Source: an uncultured bacterium (GTDB lineage: Bacteria; Patescibacteriota; Minisyncoccia; Phycocordibacterales; CAIRYW01). Taken from it: a stretch of 64,000 nucleotides of DNA. Below, in pieces: positions 3,106-27,665 of the stretch (position 1 is its first letter; each line of letters opens with the position of its first letter). The translations under genes and the position numbers were made by a program. A model generated the notes under the pieces. It was not told where the DNA came from and ran no database searches. It was given only the letters and a program-made list of their open reading frames with translations. The stretch covers positions 1,406 to 65,405 of the forward strand of contig CAIRYW010000019.1 of the NCBI GenBank assembly GCA_903882905.1. The letters run 5' to 3'.

Positions 3106-3396
3106 AACCCAGCACCTTTTTATGCACTATGTGTATGTAATACAAAGCATTATTGATAAAAGTTTATATTTTGGCATTACTAATGATCTAAGCCGTCGCC
3201 TGTTAGAGCATAATGATAAGAAAAATTTTTCCACGAGTTATAAAGGTCCATGGAGGTATGTGTACATTGAAGGATATTTAAGTAGGAAAGATGCTGCTTT
3301 GAGAGAAAAAATTTTTAAGCATTACGGTAATGCACGGACTTATGTTAAACGTCGATTGAAAAATAGTTTAAGTGCATAAGAAGGTGCTGGGAAAAG
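3106..3396 (+). mobile_element. GIY-YIG ORF flanked by perfect 11-bp inverted repeats CCCAGCACCTT / AAGGTGCTGGG (copy A of the CCCAGCAC IR family)
   Basis: IR arms at 3108-3118 and 3381-3391 bracket the 3122-3379 ORF exactly; lies in the pilM-pilN intergenic region. Confidence 0.55.
3122..3379 (+). CDS. GIY-YIG nuclease domain protein (small, 85 aa)
   Basis: YVYVIQS...YFGITNDLSRRLLEHN GIY-YIG motif. Confidence 0.8.
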   Translation: MHYVYVIQSIIDKSLYFGITNDLSRRLLEHNDKKNFSTSYKGPWRYVYIEGYLSRKDAALREKIFKHYGNARTYVKRRLKNSLSA

Positions 3397-8464: not shown

Positions 8465-8590
8465 CCCAGTACTAACTTTTCGGAACAATTTAAAAAAAAT
8501 GAGAATTAATAAATTACATAACATATTGAAAATAAAAATCAGTCAGACGACTGATTTTTGTGGTAAATTATCAGAAAAGTTAGTGCTGGG
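8465..8590 (+). repeat. CCCAGCAC-core inverted-repeat element, copy B (arms cccagtactaacttttc / gaaaagttagtgctggg, one mismatch)
   Basis: 17-bp arms separated by ~92 bp in the pilT-pilC spacer; the interior contains an ATGAG..TTAAT..AAATATT stretch similar to copies D/E and a small hairpin aatcagtc/gactgatt. Confidence 0.55.
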
Positions 8591-9852: not shown

Positions 9853-9907
9853 AAAACCTGCGAGGCTAAGCCTCAAGGATTTTAAGAGGCTTAGCCTCGC
9901 AGGTTTT
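9853..9907 (+). repeat. Perfect 22-bp inverted repeat AAAACCTGCGAGGCTAAGCCTC / GAGGCTTAGCCTCGCAGGTTTT (large hairpin) downstream of pilC
   Basis: Arms 9853-9874 and 9886-9907, 11-nt loop; likely terminator or REP-like structure. Confidence 0.6.
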
Positions 9908-9921
9908 CACTACAAAATTTG

Positions 9922-9961
9922 CCCAGCACCTTCTTTTGCTGCAGCAAAAGAAGGTGCTGGG
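9922..9961 (+). repeat. Perfect 40-nt palindrome CCCAGCACCTTCTTTTGCTG|CAGCAAAAGAAGGTGCTGGG (copy C of the CCCAGCAC family, no spacer)
   Basis: Self-complementary around a CTGCAG centre. Confidence 0.6.
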
Positions 9962-10127
9962 TTTTCCACACCCTATTTTTTTTAAAAAGTATTTAATGTA
10001 TAATTACAGGACAATTAAAAACAAATTCGCTCGGGTCGAATCGAGCAGAAATTAATTTAAAAGTTATTAGCGTGCCCTCTCAAGTTTTTTGAAGAAAAAT
10101 TTGTTAGGGTTATAAATTACTAAAAAA

Positions 10128-10496
10128 ATGAATAAACAAAAAGGTTTTACACTGATCGAACTTTTGGTTGTTATTGCAATCATTGGTATTTTGTCTGCAG
10201 TTGTTCTTACATCATTGACTGGAGCAAGAACGAAGGCTCAAACAGCAGCATATAAAGCAGAACTAGCTGGTTTGCAACCTGCATTGATTAGCGATTGTGA
10301 TACTGGAGCTTTAACAACTGGTGCTGGTGATTTAATTGCGAATGGTCAACATTCTCTTGGAACCGTAAGTGCTCAGACTTGTGCTACAAATGGAGGAACA
10401 TTTACTGTTGGTTTCACTGTCGGTACGGGTAAATCAGGAGGTACTTGTACAGCTGGCCAGATAACAGATTCTGCTGTAACGTTTACTGGTTGTTAA
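10128..10496 (+). CDS. Type IV pilin (class III signal peptide MNKQKG|FTLIEL)
   Basis: Prepilin N-methylation motif, hydrophobic helix, C-terminal Cys pair. Confidence 0.85.
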   Translation: MNKQKGFTLIELLVVIAIIGILSAVVLTSLTGARTKAQTAAYKAELAGLQPALISDCDTGALTTGAGDLIANGQHSLGTVSAQTCATNGGTFTVGFTVGTGKSGGTCTAGQITDSAVTFTGC

Positions 10497-10596: not shown

Positions 10597-10616
10597 CTAT
10601 ATATAAATATATTAAA

Positions 10617-11030
10617 ATGAATAAACAAAAAGGTTTTACACTTATCGAACTTTTGGTTGTTATCGCAATCATTGGTATTTTGTCTGCAGTTGTTCTTACA
10701 TCATTGACTAGTGCGAGAACAAAAGCAAGGAGGGGGGCTGCTATTTCGACTATGCAAGGTATTATGCATGAATTCTTAATTTGTGATATTGATGGTGGAT
10801 ATGGTCTAACAACTGCAATCACTGCTGGTACATCATATGTCTGTGTAAGTGCATCAGGAGGCACAACTGCCATGGCTGGTCATACAATCACTTGGCCAAG
10901 CATAGCAAACACTGGTTATGCTTATGCAACTCCTGCAGGTCTTCTTTCTGCTGGAACATATCAATATACTGCAACTATTTCTGGTGGACCCACAATTACA
11001 TGTACTCCCTCGACAAACGTCTGTAGTTAA
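10617..11030 (+). CDS. Type IV pilin paralog
   Basis: MNKQKGFTLIELLVVIAIIGILSAVV N-terminus identical to pilin 1. Confidence 0.85.
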   Translation: MNKQKGFTLIELLVVIAIIGILSAVVLTSLTSARTKARRGAAISTMQGIMHEFLICDIDGGYGLTTAITAGTSYVCVSASGGTTAMAGHTITWPSIANTGYAYATPAGLLSAGTYQYTATISGGPTITCTPSTNVCS

Positions 11031-11120
11031 AATTGTCTGGATAAAATTTACAGTCCTATTAAAATAAAATAATTGTCCTCGATCACTATAATTAATATTT
11101 TTTCGTGTTAAAATATTTAC

Positions 11121-11486
11121 ATGAAAAAAGGTTTTACACTTATCGAACTTTTAGTTGTTATTGCAATAATTGGTATTTTGTCTTCTGTGGTTCTTACGTC
11201 TTTGAATGGTGCGAGAGACAAAGCAAAAATTTCTGCTTTCAAGTCTGAACTTTCTTCTCTTCAGTCTGGGTTGGTAAGTATTTGTGATTCTAGAGATATT
11301 GATGTTGCAACTGATACTCCAGCAATTGGTGCCCATAGCGCAGCTGATATTGCGAGTTTTGCACAAAGTTGTGCCGATGACACCGACCCGGTTTATACAT
11401 TTAGTGTTACATTCACTCCAACAAATGGTGCTGCCTGCACTGATGGGACTATCACTGATTCTACTACTACGTACACTGGTTGCTAA
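11121..11486 (+). CDS. Type IV pilin paralog
   Basis: MKKG|FTLIELLVVIAIIG, C-terminal Cys pair. Confidence 0.85.
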   Translation: MKKGFTLIELLVVIAIIGILSSVVLTSLNGARDKAKISAFKSELSSLQSGLVSICDSRDIDVATDTPAIGAHSAADIASFAQSCADDTDPVYTFSVTFTPTNGAACTDGTITDSTTTYTGC

Positions 11487-11536: not shown

Positions 11537-12019
11537 ATGAAAAAAGGTTTTACCCAGCACCAAGTTTTCACAAAACAAGAGTTAATCAAGCGTAAGTTTT
11601 CTATTAGAAAACTTAGTGCTGGGTTTACACTTATCGAACTTTTAGTTGTTATTGCAATAATTGGTATTTTGTCTTCTGTGGTTCTTACGTCTCTAAGTGG
11701 GGCACAAGATAAAGCTAGAAAAGCTGCGGTGATTTCAAGCTTGCAGAGTATTATGCACGAACTTACAATGTGTGATATTGATGGTGGTTTTGGTAGAACG
11801 GAAAACCCTATAGTAGCTGGCGATTATATATGTGTCACTCCAAGTGGAACTGTTAATACTCCTATGACAAATCATACGGCTACTTGGCCAAACATTACAG
11901 GTATTGGTGGTACATATGGGAGTGCTAGGAATGCATTTTCAACTGGAACCTATTCTTATATAGCGACAGTTAATGGTGCAACCATAACTTGTACTTACTC
12001 AACCCAAGTTTGTAGTTAA
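11537..12019 (+). CDS. Type IV pilin paralog with 25-aa insertion in the leader peptide (MKKGFT-[QHQVFTKQELIKRKFSIRKLSAGFT]-LIEL)
   Basis: Start ATG 11537, internal to ORF-track start 11507. The mature part is a paralog of the 10617 pilin; the insertion corresponds to IR element copy G. Confidence 0.75.
   Translation: MKKGFTQHQVFTKQELIKRKFSIRKLSAGFTLIELLVVIAIIGILSSVVLTSLSGAQDKARKAAVISSLQSIMHELTMCDIDGGFGRTENPIVAGDYICVTPSGTVNTPMTNHTATWPNITGIGGTYGSARNAFSTGTYSYIATVNGATITCTYSTQVCS
11546..11628 (+). mobile_element. CCCAGCAC-core IR element copy G (68-bp insert with 7-bp target duplication GGTTT(T)AC) inside the pilin leader-coding sequence
   Basis: Arms acccagcaccaagttt / aaacttagtgctgggt (one mismatch). 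Flanking GGTTTTAC / GGTTTAC duplication reconstitutes the G-F-T codons; total 75 bp, in frame. Confidence 0.6.
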
Positions 12020-12056
12020 AAACTTTTAGTATAGATAATTGTGTTAAAATGTTCTT

Positions 12057-12509
12057 ATGGAAAAAGGATTTTCATTAATGGAACTCATGGTTGCTGTTGC
12101 GGTCATCGGTATTTTGACTGCTGTGGTTATTCCTTCATATTTGTCTTCAAAAGCAAGGTCTAGAGATGCTATTCGTCTCGGAGACTTAAAGAGTATTTCT
12201 TTGGCTATACAAAATTCTTGGCAAGAAAGTGGTTATACAACTTGGCCACAAAGTTTATCCGATATTTCCTCATATTTTAATGGCGTAATACCCACTGATC
12301 CGTCTGATCATTCACAATATTTATATACTCCCTATAGTCTTGATAGGGCAACTCAGATTGGCAATGATCCAAGTACTCAGAAAAAAGATTTTTGTCTTGG
12401 AACGAAAATGGAAGTAATATCGGCAACAACTACTTGCAATATGCAGGATGCTTATGCCCAAGGTAAAAGTTATCCAACTGGTTACAATTATACTTATGTA
12501 GGGCCGTAG
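12057..12509 (+). CDS. Type IV pilin-like protein (MEKG|FSLMELMVAVAVIG)
   Basis: Prepilin motif with E5, hydrophobic N-helix. Confidence 0.75.
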   Translation: MEKGFSLMELMVAVAVIGILTAVVIPSYLSSKARSRDAIRLGDLKSISLAIQNSWQESGYTTWPQSLSDISSYFNGVIPTDPSDHSQYLYTPYSLDRATQIGNDPSTQKKDFCLGTKMEVISATTTCNMQDAYAQGKSYPTGYNYTYVGP

Positions 12510-12534
12510 TTTTTCATTATGTTATAATTTACAT

Positions 12535-13356
12535 ATGTTTTATTATCTTTCAGCAGTAATTTTTGTTGTCGGTACGATTATTGGCAGTTTTCTTAATGTC
12601 GTCGCTCTTAGAATCAATACTGGTAAGGGCTTAATGGGTAGGTCTTTTTGCATGTCTTGTGGAAAGACAATAAAATCATATGATCTTTTTCCTATCTTGA
12701 GTTTTCTATCTCTGGGTGGAAAATCCCGTTGTTGCAAGACAAAAATTTCTTGGCAGTATCCTTTGGTTGAATTTATCACAGGACTAATTTTTCTTTCAGT
12801 TTTTTTAAAGTTTTATAGTCTTGCATACGTTCCAGTTTTGGTTCCAACTTTTTGGTATTTAGCTTTTTGTATTTTGATTGTTATCACGATTTATGATGTA
12901 AGACATCAGATTATTCCAGATTTTCTTTCATATACTTTTGCATTTTTATCTGTTTTATATTTTGTTGGAGATAAAAGTCTTACAAGTATTTTTTCTTATC
13001 CAGAAATTTTAAATTTTTTGGCTGGCCCAATTATTTTTGCTGTGTTCTCTTTGGTTTGGTTTGTTTCAAAAGGGAGATGGATTGGTTTTGGAGATGGAAA
13101 ACTAGCCCTTGGAATGGGGTTTGCATTAGGATTTTCAGAAGCTCTTTCGGCAATTGCTTTTGCCTTTTGGATCGGGGCAATCTGGAGTATTTTTATACTA
13201 CTTTTTCAAAAACTTGGTATTGCAAAAAGTAAATTTAATTTTAAGAGCGCTGTGCCGTTTGCACCATTTATGATTGCGGGATTTCTTTTGGCTTTTATTT
13301 TGAGCGCTGATGTTTTTAGTTTAAATATGTTAATTTTTGGCCCAGCACCTTTTTAA
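12535..13356 (+). CDS. pilD: Prepilin peptidase PilD (A24 family, bifunctional)
   Basis: N-terminal Cys tetrad CMSCGK...CCKTK, multiple TM, catalytic Asp region. Confidence 0.85.
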   Translation: MFYYLSAVIFVVGTIIGSFLNVVALRINTGKGLMGRSFCMSCGKTIKSYDLFPILSFLSLGGKSRCCKTKISWQYPLVEFITGLIFLSVFLKFYSLAYVPVLVPTFWYLAFCILIVITIYDVRHQIIPDFLSYTFAFLSVLYFVGDKSLTSIFSYPEILNFLAGPIIFAVFSLVWFVSKGRWIGFGDGKLALGMGFALGFSEALSAIAFAFWIGAIWSIFILLFQKLGIAKSKFNFKSAVPFAPFMIAGFLLAFILSADVFSLNMLIFGPAPF

Positions 13357-13440
13357 TTTGTTAAAATCATGAGTTTAATTAAAATAATAAAAAAATATTT
13401 TTCAAAAAAAAATCTTAATGAAGTACAAAAAGGTGCTGGG
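13341..13440 (+). repeat. CCCAGCAC-core IR element copy D (14-bp arms CCCAGCACCTTTTT / AAAAAGGTGCTGGG) enclosing the start codon and leader of pseudopilin 13369
   Basis: Left arm overlaps the pilD stop; right arm encodes K-G-A-G of the cleavage site. Confidence 0.6.
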
Positions 13441-14643: not shown

Positions 14644-14745
14644 AACCCAGCACCTTTATCTTTTCAAAATCATGAACTTCATAAATAAAACAAAAAAATA
14701 TTTTTTAAAGAAAAATTTATACAAAGCACATAAAGGTGCTGGGTT
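14644..14745 (+). repeat. CCCAGCAC-core IR element copy E (16-bp arms AACCCAGCACCTTTAT / ATAAAGGTGCTGGGTT) enclosing the start and leader of pseudopilin 14672
   Basis: Interior is homologous to copy D (aaaatcatga..ttaat..aaaaaaatatttt..); the right arm encodes KGAG. Confidence 0.6.
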
Positions 14746-15292
14746 CACATTAATTGAAACTATGGTTGCAATTACCATCCTTCTTGTAACTATTGTTGGA
14801 CCGATGGAGATCGCTTCGAAAGCTTTATTTTCTGCTTTTTATGCTAGAGATCAAATAACTGCATATTATTTAGCACAAGAGGGTATAGAGTCTTTAAGAA
14901 ACTTCAGAGATGTTTATTATTTAAATGGCTTTACTGGTTGGCCTTCTTTTGTGACAGATTGTTCATATGACGGGATAAGTAAGTATGGGTGTAAAGTTGG
15001 TGCTTCTAGTGGTGCGAATCCTGTTTATAGTGTATTAAAATGTACTGCTAAATGTGATACACCTAGTGATGCCCTATATTACAATAGTGGGAATGGTATA
15101 TATTCTTATATTACTGATTCTGGTAATACCAAATCAAAATATACTAGATTAGTGAAAGTTACCCCAGATGCAACAAATCCTAATGATGCCGCGCTCGTTG
15201 AATCGACAGTTTATTGGACAGGAAGTTATCTATCGAGCGGTACAAAATCTTTTACAATAAAAGAAATGCTTTATAACTGGCAGACGAAATAA
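14672..15292 (+). CDS. Minor pseudopilin with long leader (..KKYFLKKNLYKAHKGAG|FTLIETMV)
   Basis: Prepilin motif; the leader is similar to that of the 13369 gene. Confidence 0.75.
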   Translation: MNFINKTKKYFLKKNLYKAHKGAGFTLIETMVAITILLVTIVGPMEIASKALFSAFYARDQITAYYLAQEGIESLRNFRDVYYLNGFTGWPSFVTDCSYDGISKYGCKVGASSGANPVYSVLKCTAKCDTPSDALYYNSGNGIYSYITDSGNTKSKYTRLVKVTPDATNPNDAALVESTVYWTGSYLSSGTKSFTIKEMLYNWQTK

Positions 15293-15301
15293 ATAAGAAT
15301 T

Positions 15302-15838
15302 ATGACAAAAGATTTAAGATTTAAGAATAAAAAAGAAAATGTAGGGTTTACACTCCTGTATGCCTCAATGATTGCAGGTCTTTTACTCGCTATTGGAGCA
15401 GCGATACTTAGTATTACTGTAAAACAAATTTCACTTTCTGCCGCTGGGAGAGAGTCGCAGTTTGCATTTTACAATGCAGATACAGGAACAGAATGTGCAG
15501 TTTATTGGTATAGAACGTCAAAAACCGGTATTTGTCCAGCTGGCCTTTTTCCACCAAAAAGTGATAGTACAAACGATCAGTCTTGCACTAATATAAGCTC
15601 AAATCCACCTAAATGTTTAGGATTGGCTTTGACTGACAAATATGGCGGGCAAATAACATCTTTTGCACAAACTGGGTTATATTCTTTTAGCATCACTTCT
15701 CAGGGTGCAAATAATATTTGCTTTGATGTAACAATTGACAAGAATACTGACCCAAGTAAAACTATAATAACCTCTAGAGGGTACAATACTTGTGATAAGG
15801 GGAACAGATTCGAGAGAGCAATTGAAGTTGATTTCTAG
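15302..15838 (+). CDS. Non-canonical pilin-like protein (G|FTLLY, lacks Glu5; PilX/ComGG-like candidate)
   Basis: Hydrophobic N-terminal helix after a GFTLL motif, Cys-rich C-terminus; last gene of the pilin block. Confidence 0.5.
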   Translation: MTKDLRFKNKKENVGFTLLYASMIAGLLLAIGAAILSITVKQISLSAAGRESQFAFYNADTGTECAVYWYRTSKTGICPAGLFPPKSDSTNDQSCTNISSNPPKCLGLALTDKYGGQITSFAQTGLYSFSITSQGANNICFDVTIDKNTDPSKTIITSRGYNTCDKGNRFERAIEVDF

Positions 15839-27561: not shown

Positions 27562-27665
27562 GCCCAGCACATAGTTTTTCTGATTTCGTGCCATGTTGGT
27601 CTAATTTTGATATAATTAATACACATTGAGTTTTAATTTTCTACCCAGAAAAACTATGTGCTGGG
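27562..27665 (+). repeat. CCCAGCAC-core IR element copy F (21-bp arms GCCCAGCACATAGTTTTTCTG / CAGAAAAACTATGTGCTGGGC)
   Basis: Perfect arms separated by 62 bp between prfB and ftsE. Confidence 0.6.

Follow-up and report, generated by a model that had tools for sequence, protein, structure and literature searches.

Short palindromic elements that lie in frame within ORFs, and also in RNA genes, are known from Rickettsia (Ogata et al. 2000, as presented in PMC1779305 and in the MITE review PMC10969869). By that description they resemble the element reported here in two respects, the reduced genomes of host-dependent bacteria that carry them and the tolerance of the peptide they add; they are not known to have a nuclease gene associated with them or to favor one codon site. 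Tsurumaki et al. (2024, PMC11270868) reported GIY-YIG insertion sequences in CPR rRNA genes, noting that they belong to neither the group I nor the group II introns and do not resemble classical homing. A term search of that article returned neither inverted repeats nor palindromes, and the parts of it used here describe neither miniature copies nor sites in protein genes.

MITEs, such as the Correia elements of Neisseria, are small, ORF-less and multi-copy; they have terminal inverted repeats, a short duplication, presence/absence polymorphism and a longer partner with the same ends. Homing endonuclease genes in group I introns and inteins, for example that of the GIY-YIG enzyme I-TevI, place a nuclease gene at a highly conserved sequence of a conserved gene and are harmless because the inserted segment is taken out of the gene product. 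The IS200/IS605 group is hairpin-based with a tetranucleotide-type target. The family described below shares these traits with the respective group, the removal of the inserted segment being a prediction in its case.

We analyzed a 64-kb stretch of DNA (64,000 nucleotides, the window) from an uncultured member of the Patescibacteria in which one pilin gene carries 75 extra bases. Our preferred reading, to which we assign a probability of about 0.8, is that a palindromic mobile family supplied 71 of these bases, in the form of an ORF-less member, and a 4-bp duplication the rest, and that the element is a site-preferring, tolerated selfish one. It differs from the Rickettsia palindromic elements in its site, a prepilin cleavage motif, in adding its peptide to a leader whose removal is predicted, in having full-length partners with a GIY-YIG gene and in its host lineage, the Rickettsia elements being found outside the Patescibacteria. 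In the literature searched we found no description of the repeat, of GIY-YIG proteins with palindromes or target duplications, or of GIY-YIG proteins with a prepilin.

The insertion in the pilin leader

The product of the pilin gene at 11537 has an N_methyl domain (Pfam, residues 25-50, E = 3.4e-8) and the features of a class III signal peptide (...KLSAG|FTLIELLVVIAIIGIL, with Gly at -1, Phe at +1, Glu at +5 and a hydrophobic helix). Over its first 17 nt (11537-11553) the ORF matches the beginning of the paralogue at 11121 exactly. Translation from the ATG at 11537 reads MKKGFT-QHQVFTKQELIKRKFSIRKLSAGFT-LIELLVV and that of the paralogue MKKG|FTLIELLVV, a difference of exactly 75 bp. The sequence-only reading had proposed an in-frame insertion of 75 bp, or exactly 25 codons, that lengthens the leader from 4 to 29 residues, regenerates the G|FTLIEL site and leaves the mature pilin unchanged. 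The alignment bears this out: the terminal GCT GGG of the element and the TTT AC that begins with the right-hand TTTA rebuild Ala-Gly|Phe-Thr. A stretch of 72 bp (11130-11201 and 11621-11692) is 98.6% identical between the two paralogues.

The homologues of the 11537 pilin, 45-51% identical, align over the mature part only. Like the paralogues, all those listed have leaders of 4-15 residues without the insert, and a long-leader extension was found in none of the 22 homologues read, of 4339 scored (E <= 1e-5). Comparison with these genes shows the 75-bp insert to be the derived state. Contigs of ERZ18625109 and ERZ27313095 contain it at 99.8-100% identity, and in ERZ1426629 a 160-aa gene call carries it; with three other assemblies containing it, the insert is not an assembly artefact. 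The long leader is not a property of all orthologues. Long leaders as such are natural to the lineage: that of gene 14052 has 20 aa and that of the L132 orthologue has 40. For the 11537 gene, no clean empty-site allele was found. The sole shorter allele, L002, was rejected as one: in it the body of 11537 follows on the upstream region and 5' end of 11121, with the joint in the 72-bp repeat, and the body of the pilin at 10128 is missing too. It is a recombinant or a collapsed assembly.

An inverted repeat of 18 nt, 94% complementary, bounds the insert (ACCCAGCACCAAGTTTTC at 11552-11569 and GAAAACTTAGTGCTGGGT at 11607-11624). The RNA of the insert folds at -26.8 kcal/mol (z = -4.8 against shuffles), and it contains no in-frame ATG, GTG or TTG and no other start-to-stop ORF. 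It matches no Rfam family at the gathering score, with only generic hairpin matches below threshold, and no phage DNA was found. Comparison across the family defines the element as CCCAGCAC...GTGCTGGG, 71 bp, with an exact 4-bp TTTA on each side (Table 1). The sequence-only reading had rightly seen an inverted-repeat element and a duplication, but its sizes of 68 bp and 7 bp do not hold, as GGTTTTAC (8 nt) and GGTTTAC (7 nt) are unequal and the family statistics favor 71 + 4. The extra apparent matches of the duplication pair the target Gly codon GGT with the element-terminal GGG and the first C of the element with the C of the target. A parse of 73 bp, with the outer A...T included, and a 2-bp duplication of TT was also rejected. 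It would have fitted the 2-nt, not 4-nt, overhangs of characterized GIY-YIG endonucleases, but enrichment is seen for 4-bp repeats and not for 2-bp ones (8 against 11.3 expected).

Table 1. Features of the pilin locus and bounded family copies in the window
Feature	Position	Strand	Details
Full-length member, 21-nt inverted repeat	3108..3391	+	Same termini around 85-aa GIY-YIG nuclease ORF (3122-3379)
ORF-less member between pilT and pilC	8465..8590		Left end CCCAGTAC
40-bp perfect hairpin member 3' of pilC	9922..9961		Orthologous copy in L134 at 1900-1939
Paralogous pilin with empty site	11121..11486	+	GGTTTTAC at 11130-11137; ORF list, paralogue alignment
Prepilin gene with insertion	11537..12019	+	160 aa; ORF and translation; predicted leader 29 aa; mature start FTLIELLVV
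Original start and leader codons ATG AAA AAA GGT (MKKG)	11537..11548	+	Kept 5' of element
TTTA, left copy of 4-bp duplication	11549..11552		Flank comparison across family
Palindromic element, ORF-less, 71 bp, CCCAGCACCAAGTTTTC...GAAAACTTAGTGCTGGG	11553..11623		Pilin-frame reading (T)QHQVFTKQELIKRKFSIRKLSAG
TTTA, right copy of 4-bp duplication	11624..11627		GCTGGGTTTACACTT read at 11618-11632
Prepilin peptidase PilD, expected cutter at G|F	12535..13356	+	Pfam A24_N_bact E = 4e-28, Peptidase_A24 E = 2e-12
100-bp member	13341..13440	+	Left arm = last codons and stop of pilD
98-bp member, ~75% identical to 13341 copy	14646..14743	+	Internal ATG at 14672
Unoccupied target GGGTTTAC in pilin-like gene 15302-15838	15344..15351	+	Orthologues filled
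103-bp intergenic member	27563..27665		CCCAGCACA ends

Copies of the family in the window and in other genomes

The window contains 14 occurrences of the motif CCCAGCAC, where 0.49 are expected. Seven bounded copies of the palindromic family are present there, six of them inside the pilus gene cluster. Their ends have the form (A)CCCAGCAC(C)...(G)GTGCTGGG(T), with the outer 8-10 nt common to all copies; the inner arms vary among copies yet stay complementary within each copy. The copy at 11553-11623 belongs to the family by its termini, its interior being single-copy in the window, where no donor for it was found. The exact 4-bp flanking repeat is absent in the other six window copies.

The ORF at 3122-3379 codes for an SLX1/UPF0213-like nuclease (Pfam GIY-YIG, E = 1.1e-13) with homologues, 63-66% identical, between the same repeat in other genomes. 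Two shorter members supply pilin leaders: an internal ATG (13369) and the right arm of the 13341 copy give the next pilin its 24-aa leader, MSLIKIIKKYFSKKNLNEVQKGAG|, and an internal ATG (14672) and the right arm of the 14646 copy encode the leader MNFINKTKKYFLKKNLYKAHKGAG| of the pilin at 14672-15292. We considered whether these two arose from the nuclease copy at 3108 by internal deletion; aligned to it, they score just 2-3 SD above shuffles. At the position of the 8465-8590 copy, related genomes have a GIY-YIG element of a sister subfamily, and the sites orthologous to 15344 hold a 41-bp hairpin in L134 and a 281-bp GIY-YIG element in L257.

Family copies are found in at least 119 loci of a genome collection, representing many Patescibacteria lineages and other phyla, and in at least 120 loci of a second collection, of metagenomes. 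In L008-L011, GIY-YIG ORFs lie between the same repeats inside or adjoining 16S rRNA genes, and the same termini are found within RNase P RNA genes. With homologues of the window nuclease in 16S rRNA genes between CCCAGCAC repeats, the insertions described in PMC11270868 evidently belong to the same family; the 11553-11623 copy differs from the rRNA insertions of that description in being ORF-less and in lying in a pilin leader. We dropped the idea that the inverted repeats form a shufflon-like or invertible-promoter system once the same ends had been found flanking nuclease genes in rRNA genes and also in many phyla.

The position of six of the seven window copies in the pilus gene cluster might suggest a local regulatory hairpin, since hairpins can be terminators or processing sites and the 9922 copy scores terminator-like. 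We give almost no credence to this, to an ancestral long leader or to an assembly artefact, all of which were already disfavored. The same termini surround nuclease genes and lie in the rRNA and RNase P RNA genes of many phyla, the target duplication is seen at the level of the family, homologues lack the insert, no Rfam family reaches threshold and three independent assemblies contain the insert.

Exact 4-bp TTYA repeats flank 15 of 157 copies from other genomes, against 2.7 expected, and exact TTTA or TTCA repeats also flank copies at unrelated non-pilin sites. Position -1 of the flank is A in 83% of family copies and position +1 is T in 78%. Older copies have mostly lost the flanking repeat, the exact form being kept in only about 10%. 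Filled and empty orthologous sites can be compared directly (L131 with L132, and L134 and L257 with the window). The suggestion of the sequence-only reading that the duplication is a transposition footprint gains support from these sites, from the terminal inverted repeats and from the TTYA duplication of the family.

In its size without an ORF, its terminal inverted repeats, its fixed-length duplication and the multi-copy, presence/absence distribution of its family, the 11553-11623 copy has the properties of a MITE. The family is unlike MITEs in that its partner encodes an SLX1/UPF0213-like GIY-YIG protein and no DDE or other recognized transposase, in that the inner arms vary but remain co-complementary, and in its strong preference for one coding motif. 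The full-length partners with the same CCCAGCACC ends encode only GIY-YIG, which makes it the candidate mobility enzyme. No other ORF was found between family repeats in any copy seen, including Y1 TnpA and TnpB.

It is also conceivable that the insert is a hairpin derivative resembling the palindrome-associated elements of IS200/IS605. A tyrosine HUH transposase from another locus would then have carried it in single-stranded form and inserted it 3' of a TTAC-like tetranucleotide, with the apparent duplication made up of the target and a matching element end. TTAC does close the left flank (GGTTTTAC|CCAGCAC), and ...GGGTTTAC is a possible reading of the right end; in essence the element forms a single hairpin, and its arms evolve together, as fits a single-strand hairpin intermediate. 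This origin is nonetheless very improbable. GIY-YIG is the only ORF ever found between the repeats, with neither a Y1 transposase nor TnpB, and distinct GIY-YIG subfamilies have distinct cognate repeats: the sister subfamily has its own repeat, ACCCTGTTAAAT, protein subfamily and repeat changing together, and the arms in L257 co-vary (CCCCGCACC / GGTGCGGGG). Members of the IS200/IS605 group have a separate subterminal hairpin at each of their two ends, whereas here a single inverted repeat spans the element.

Recurrence at prepilin cleavage sites

Five more hairpin cases of the in-frame type were found at pilin Gly|Phe-Thr sites in related loci, two in L134 and the others in L131, L136 and L257, the last a full-length element; empty orthologues of these sites are in L132 and the window. 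To the metagenomes we applied a scan whose pattern fixed TTTA/TTYAC flanks, and its 35% share of pilin sites holds for the matches listed. Among these, 42 of the 120 flank-defined copies lie in the prepilin cleavage site G|F[TS]LxE, in 40 distinct pilins, and 39 of the 42 have GGN just upstream. The CCCAGCACCA sub-lineage accounts for 37 of the 42 pilin-site copies listed and for 12 of the 78 elsewhere (Fisher p = 3e-15). By contrast, an unbiased genome scan restricted to CCCAGCACCTT found none of the 149 copies of that sub-lineage at a pilin site. The site preference is therefore a trait of one sub-lineage, and a pilin association of the whole family is not supported.

The pilin-site copies tend to preserve the reading frame. 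Among the matches listed, 27 of 42 are in frame where one third is expected (p = 5e-5), an excess that is also seen against the length spectrum of the non-pilin copies (p = 0.02). An ATG in the pilin frame is kept by 44 of 47 pilin-site copies. The sequence-only reading had attributed frame retention to selection or a target-specific mechanism. The recurrent Gly|Phe-Thr site and the in-frame excess support this. While the observation behind that reading was confirmed in part, its interpretation as transposition with frame retention is supported more generally than proposed.

Homing or gene conversion that carried the element from one pilin gene to another could also give such a distribution. 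A break at the conserved pilin 5' end would be repaired from a filled pilin, with FTLIELLVVIAIIG as the downstream homology and TTTA inherited with the insert. A separate sub-lineage at pilin sites (37/42 against 12/78 among the matches listed) would be expected from such spread, and the 72 bp past the junction, 98.6% identical between two paralogues, and L002, which suggests recombination among pilin 5' repeats, are consistent with it. So are the unequal flanking repeats (TTTA/TTCA) and Gly codons (GGA/GGG) of L134 and L257. We regard this as unlikely, since exact TTTA or TTCA repeats are also found at unrelated non-pilin sites, suggesting that the duplication is made at each insertion. Moreover, the upstream homology among pilin genes is just a few bases, and no donor with the 11553-11623 interior is in the window.

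A further alternative is that the insertion is not silent: the hairpin or the doubled G-F-T would block translation or processing, leaving a silenced or decaying pilin that is tolerated through three other major-pilin paralogues. Disruptive insertions do persist, as 15 of the 42 metagenome pilin-site copies are out of frame among the matches listed; the hairpin is strong (-26.8 kcal/mol) and four pilin paralogues lie in tandem. We doubt that it applies to the 11537 gene, in which the ORF is intact over 160 codons and the mature part is conserved, including the C-terminal Cys. In-frame copies are over-represented, the encoded peptide is basic, as natural leaders are, and long leaders are natural at the pilus locus.

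Prepilin processing and the nuclease

Under our preferred reading of a tolerated mobile element, integration would take place at TTTA within GGT|TTTA|C, where the codons for Gly(-1), Phe(+1) and Thr(+2) lie, with duplication of TTTA. A 4-nt staggered cut at the TTTA of the predicted target AAAGGNTTTACNCTNATHGAA may be the means and the GIY-YIG protein the candidate mobility enzyme. Against this, its 85-aa domain has no evident DNA-binding module, and the overhangs left by characterized GIY-YIG endonucleases are of 2 nt. As 71 + 4 = 75, the frame is kept, so translation would run from the old ATG through the element. The GCT GGG of its 3' end and the duplicated TTT AC would then present Ala-Gly|Phe-Thr ahead of the unchanged mature pilin. 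PilD is predicted to process the long leader, and removal of all 29 residues by this peptidase would make the insertion of little cost. The insertion is thus probably tolerated because the A-G|F-T cleavage site is rebuilt. The 17-bp mRNA hairpin, 15 nt past the start codon, would be tolerated as well. With similar in-frame insertions in dozens of other pilin genes, the host leader peptidase probably strips them from the protein.

Homing endonuclease genes differ from this family in several ways. Removal of the product would here be carried out on the protein by the host prepilin peptidase, and the nuclease is without an evident DNA-binding domain. No self-splicing carrier, ribozyme or intein, was found, with no Rfam family at the gathering score and only GIY-YIG and N_methyl in Pfam. 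Homing does not produce a target duplication, whereas the family has one of 4 bp, both here and at unrelated sites, and ORF-less miniatures are abundant.

We also consider, at somewhat less than even odds, that a selfish GIY-YIG lineage specifically colonizes the prepilin Gly|Phe-Thr site and is made phenotypically silent by the prepilin peptidase, since the 3' end of the element restores the cleavage site and its peptide would leave with the leader. In full-length copies the prepilin leader would be the nuclease itself, freed by PilD in the cytoplasm. The 11553-11623 copy would then be a miniature derivative, and the discarding of the leader a protease-dependent counterpart of inteins and self-splicing introns. 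If confirmed, leader-peptide removal would be a third shelter for selfish nuclease genes in essential genes, beside RNA and protein splicing; since the target motif is conserved across bacteria, each genome would offer many pilin genes. If true, it would explain the unusually long and variable pilin leaders of candidate-phyla-radiation bacteria and would tie the GIY-YIG insertions of CPR rRNA genes to one family with defined ends and a duplication. It would also make a minimal SLX1/UPF0213-like nuclease a candidate mobility enzyme for an IS-like element; we know of no recognized insertion-sequence family that uses such a nuclease. The tolerated site may be of use for tagging prepilins or fusing cargo to them.

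Nuclease and prepilin are joined in one ORF in several cases. At four loci the GIY-YIG ORF reads into the pilin; Pfam identifies both GIY-YIG and N_methyl at three of them, and the remaining one has the FTLVE motif. Among the best 150 GIY-YIG cluster representatives, at least 20 prove to be nuclease::prepilin fusions in one frame. A nuclease ORF thus sits at a conserved site of a conserved gene in L257, L165, L185, L191 and L256 as well as in the fusion clusters, of which there are at least 20. Automated gene calling will give element-carrying pilins a wrong start or fuse them. Among copies of 95-100 bp, with shared descent not controlled for, a mini-ORF (MNF...KGAG) is present in about 20 of 72 in one orientation and in 2 in the other.

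The insertion in pilin 11537 and its family

The type IV pilus cluster at 1.8-15.8 kb of the window (34% G+C) encodes pilM-like, pilB, pilT and pilC genes, four tandem major-pilin paralogues, pilD and several minor pilins, followed by ligA. The nearest named homologues are in Patescibacteria/Paceibacterota genomes. Position 11537, the first coordinate given by the sequence-only reading, is the true start (ATG) of a pilin ORF that reads MKKGFTQHQVFTKQELIKRKFSIRKLSAG/FTLIELLVVIAIIGIL (slash, prepilin cleavage site); the paralogue at 11121 reads MKKG/FTLIELLVVIAIIGIL. When the four paralogue 5' ends are aligned, 75 bp are inserted in this gene and the surrounding sequence is nearly identical. The insert is delimited by an 18-nt inverted repeat, 94% complementary, with an RNA fold of -26.8 kcal/mol (z = -4.8). 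It has no in-frame ATG, GTG or TTG, so expression of this pilin depends on read-through from the ATG at 11537.

The window contains 14 occurrences of the octamer core CCCAGCAC, where 0.49 would be expected. The ends (A)CCCAGCAC(C)...(G)GTGCTGGG(T) delimit seven elements, all of which fold far better than shuffles. The arms of each copy are 14-21 nt and nearly perfect, with the outer 8-10 nt alone common to all copies.

Elements of the inverted-repeat family in the window
Position	Length	Content or location
3108-3391	284 bp	contains nuclease ORF 3122-3379
8465-8590	126 bp	pilT/pilC gap
9922-9961	40 bp	perfect hairpin, 3' of pilC
11553-11623	71 bp	in pilin 11537
13341-13440	100 bp	covers pilD stop and leader of following pilin
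14646-14743	98 bp	source of leader for pilin 14672
27563-27665	103 bp	intergenic

The ORF of the longest copy encodes an 85-aa protein with a GIY-YIG domain (Pfam E = 1e-13); among solved structures it is closest to UPF0213 proteins and to SLX1, a structure-specific nuclease. The copies at 13341 and 14646, about 75% identical to each other, each serve a minor pilin, the two pilins being otherwise unrelated: the start codon and the entire 24-residue leader, ending in KGAG/, come from within the element. The left arm of the 13341 copy also contributes the final codons and stop of pilD. The single insertion in pilin 11537 is a modest event. Through it, a recurrent, site-preferring element family comes to light that is tolerated in an unusual way. 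A perfect 22-nt inverted repeat at 9853-9907 (AAAACCTGCGAGGCTAAGCCTC and GAGGCTTAGCCTCGCAGGTTTT), 15 nt 5' of the hairpin after pilC, has no sequence kinship with the CCCAGCAC family.

The insert is also found in contigs of other assemblies: L001 is 100% identical to the insert-bearing sequence across 2.7 kb, L003, from a different study, is 99.8% identical, and in a third sample the gene is called at 160 aa. The proteins most similar to the pilin (45-51% identity, 132-147 aa) align only in the mature part. All 20 short-leader homologues examined, with leaders of 4-15 residues, lack the insert, indicating it is derived. A fourth contig, L002, comes from another sample and has a 135-aa gene. 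It was rejected as an empty-site allele because in it the DNA upstream of pilin 11121 and the 5' end of that gene run into the body of 11537 at a 72-bp repeat. L002 aligns with window 10024-10231, 10602-11201 and 11621-12672; the bodies of pilins 10128 and 11121 are missing along with the insert, and the junctions are within conserved pilin 5' repeats of 72-121 bp. Either the assembly has collapsed here or recombination has deleted pilin cassettes.

Target duplication and the prepilin cleavage site

In a set of 157 non-redundant copies, 83% have A at position -1 and 78% have T at +1. The CCCAGCAC...GTGCTGGG unit lies between exact direct repeats of 4 bp in 15 of the 157, versus 2.7 expected from shuffled pairings, with no enrichment of 2- or 3-bp repeats in the same set. 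All but one of the 15 (TGAG) are TTTA, TTCA or their complements. The family is mobile and palindromic, its ends are defined and it duplicates 4 bp of target (TTYA). Pilin 11537 matches this pattern exactly, with GGT-TTTA-[71 bp]-TTTA-CAC. A repeat does flank the element, and the sequence-only observation holds in all but the length of that repeat, which is 4 bp (TTTA) and not 7 (GGTTTAC). The repeat appears to be 7 bp because the target GG adjoins TTTA and the element ends in GGG, and because the first C of the element matches the target C after TTTA.

One sub-lineage is concentrated on the prepilin Gly/Phe-Thr codons, where the 3' end of the element, GCT GGG, and the duplication, TTT AC, recreate A-G/F-T. 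Scanning metagenomes with TTTA-CCCAGCAC-(25-85 nt)-GTGCTGGG-TTYAC returned at least 120 loci, and 120 non-redundant copies were analyzed. Among those listed, 42 of 120 are exactly at G/F-[TS]-L-x-E of a prepilin-like gene, with 40 different mature N-termini; this 35% share comes from a pattern with fixed flanks and is not an unbiased rate. GGN is directly upstream in 39 of the 42. The sub-lineage CCCAGCACCA, read as T-Q-H-H-F ... K-S-G-A-G, makes up 37 of the 42 listed pilin-site copies versus 12 of the 78 others (p = 3e-15); its tenth base is shared by the window copy, CCCAGCACCAAG. Among the matches listed in an unbiased scan for the CCCAGCACCTT sub-lineage, none was at a pilin site. By a rough, uncomputed estimate TTTAC is far commoner than the handful of pilin sites in AT-rich genomes, so the 5-nt target alone cannot explain the concentration.

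Retention of the reading frame, which the sequence-only reading took to suggest selection or a target-specific mechanism, extends to other pilin-site copies. The listed pilin-site copies are in frame in 27 of 42 cases (p = 5e-5 versus one third; p = 0.02 versus the non-pilin length spectrum), and about 24 of the 27 are open throughout. An ATG in the pilin frame is kept by 44 of 47 pilin-site copies (those listed from metagenomes plus the window and contig L134), either upstream with read-through, like 11537, or within the element, like 13341 and 14646. In-frame or self-starting copies are in excess at pilin sites.

Homologues of minor pilin 14672 (n = 120) mostly have leaders of 5-16 residues, and several have a doubled motif. 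These include P0133 (...KIGFTQHLLFLKKKEGAG/FTLIE), P0132 (...KKGFNQHLLFIKKISAG/FTLIE; its close relative P0131 reads ...GKKG/FTLIE) and P0146 (...KKGFIQRFFSNLKNLKKSAG/FTLIE; P0149 reads ...KRG/FTLIE). Of the genes with doubled motifs, L134 has two, for different pilins, and L131 one; they contain hairpins of 41, 41 and 38 bp at GGA-TTTA-...-TT(T/C)A-C, and orthologous sites in L132 and the window are empty. All three hairpins are 2 mod 3 and with the 4-bp repeat add 45, 45 and 42 bp.

Nuclease-encoding copies and pilin fusions

Nuclease homologues with 63-66% identity are bounded by the same repeats as the window 3108 copy and, judged from flanking motifs, lie within 16S rRNA genes (L008/L009 8080-8384; L010 2074-2377) or just 5' of one (L011), which links the family with the GIY-YIG-encoding insertions in rRNA genes of CPR bacteria. 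Tsurumaki et al. (PMC11270868) class those insertions with neither group I nor group II introns and describe them as inconsistent with classical homing; a term search of the paper turned up neither inverted repeats nor palindromes.

Scanning one genome per species for CCCAGCACCTT...AAGGTGCTGGG gave at least 119 loci; matches listed come from many Patescibacteria lineages, Omnitrophota, Planctomycetia, Methylomarinum, Akkermansia, Acidobacteriota and others. Judging from flanks and conserved rRNA and RNase P motifs, we take three L014 copies to be in a 23S rRNA gene, and the copy in L016 (5484-5559) and its relatives to be in RNase P RNA, apparently in place of helix P12. Further copies were judged intergenic. 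Those in rRNA and RNase P RNA genes would make long stems in the transcript and may be cut out in the way that RNase III-processed intervening sequences are. Of 72 copies of 85-105 bp, about 20 (e.g. L077 6473-6567, L029 3386-3480, L122 6040, L109 135) have a 20-26-codon ORF, M-N-F-L-A-Q-..-Y-.-P-..-V-K-G-A-G, leading out through one arm, versus 2 in the opposite orientation, a count that ignores shared descent. This ORF resembles the leaders from window copies 13341 and 14646. At the L077, L084, L036 and Ga0180009 loci elements are nested in another conserved palindromic repeat (...GAGCGAAGCGAG..TTAGAAAATCTTACA[element]TAAG..TCGCTTCGCTC...; also GGACGTATTTA[element]TTTACGGCGTCC), producing multi-copy composite repeats.

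Where pilT meets pilC, two related genomes, L131 (90-400) and L134 (380-680), carry a GIY-YIG gene of a sister subfamily with an inverted repeat of its own, ACCCTGTTAAAT...ATTTAACAGGGT; in the window an ORF-less CCCAGTAC...GTGCTGGG element occupies that position. A full-length pilin-site element in L257 (3020-3300) carries a matched double change in its arms, CCCCGCACC and GGTGCGGGG; its two ends change together. Covariation of protein with repeat and of arm with arm is expected of an element whose nuclease recognizes that element's ends and which goes through a hairpin or cruciform state, and we infer that both may be the case.

In four metagenome loci a GIY-YIG ORF with its own ATG continues without a stop through a small hairpin element into a pilin. 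In all four Pfam places GIY-YIG at residues 1-73. Three also have N_methyl, at about 95-139, and the remaining one has the FTLVE motif without a Pfam match to N_methyl. HMMER with the window nuclease found 3439 relatives. About 24 of the 150 best-scoring cluster representatives have lengths of 190-370 aa, and at least 20 of these are fusions of the form nuclease-linker-(K/S/N)xGAG/FTLIE-pilin. Stop-less nuclease ORFs that continue in frame through the right arm, read as ..K-x-G-A-G, into a prepilin are present at L165, L185, L191, L256 and L257 and among proteins P0270-P0393. At the position in L191 matching window 13341, the pilD stop is followed by the left arm, a complete nuclease ORF, the right arm and an FTLVE pilin. 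P0285, the orthologue of window gene 15302-15838, whose GGGTTTAC site is empty, reads MKNKGF-TPHHFF-MHYVYFLKS...nuclease...SLKNGAG/FTLLFSV; in its DNA GGATTCA and TTTAC flank an element of 281 bp (2 mod 3), present on seven contigs from three sources. In non-pilin copies (window 3108, L008-L011) the ORF stop precedes the right arm, so the lack of a stop at pilin sites looks selected.

Related systems and a possible mechanism

Three kinds of system come closest: Rickettsia palindromic elements, ordinary MITEs, and homing endonuclease genes that shelter in introns or inteins. Like the first, the element is an in-frame palindrome in an ORF, though its membership in that group is putative at most. 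It has the other characteristics of a MITE, the GIY-YIG protein of its partner being a candidate enzyme. Intron and intein homing elements have a self-splicing carrier and no target duplication, whereas this family lacks the former and has the latter. Our literature search, incomplete in coverage, did not turn up the repeat, GIY-YIG elements with such ends or GIY-YIG::prepilin fusions, any of which may have been described elsewhere.

The defined ends and recurrent pilin-site copies support and generalize the earlier proposal of transposition, and we give insertion of a palindromic mobile element at the prepilin site a probability of roughly 0.8. The GIY-YIG protein, with a catalytic domain akin to that of SLX1, would cut the target, the extruded hairpin ends or both. 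PilD would then remove the element-encoded peptide with the leader, leaving the mature pilin unchanged, and full-length copies would make their nuclease as a leader freed by the same cut. This full scheme of a selfish nuclease spliced out by the peptidase is tentative, at slightly under even odds. Natural leaders of 20-40 residues in the locus and its relatives make processing of the 29-residue leader plausible. In class III signal peptides a productive site needs Glu+5 and a hydrophobic helix; the first G-F-T (MKKG/FTQHQ) has neither and should not be productive. A possible cost of the insertion is a 17-bp mRNA hairpin beginning 15 nt after the 11537 start codon.
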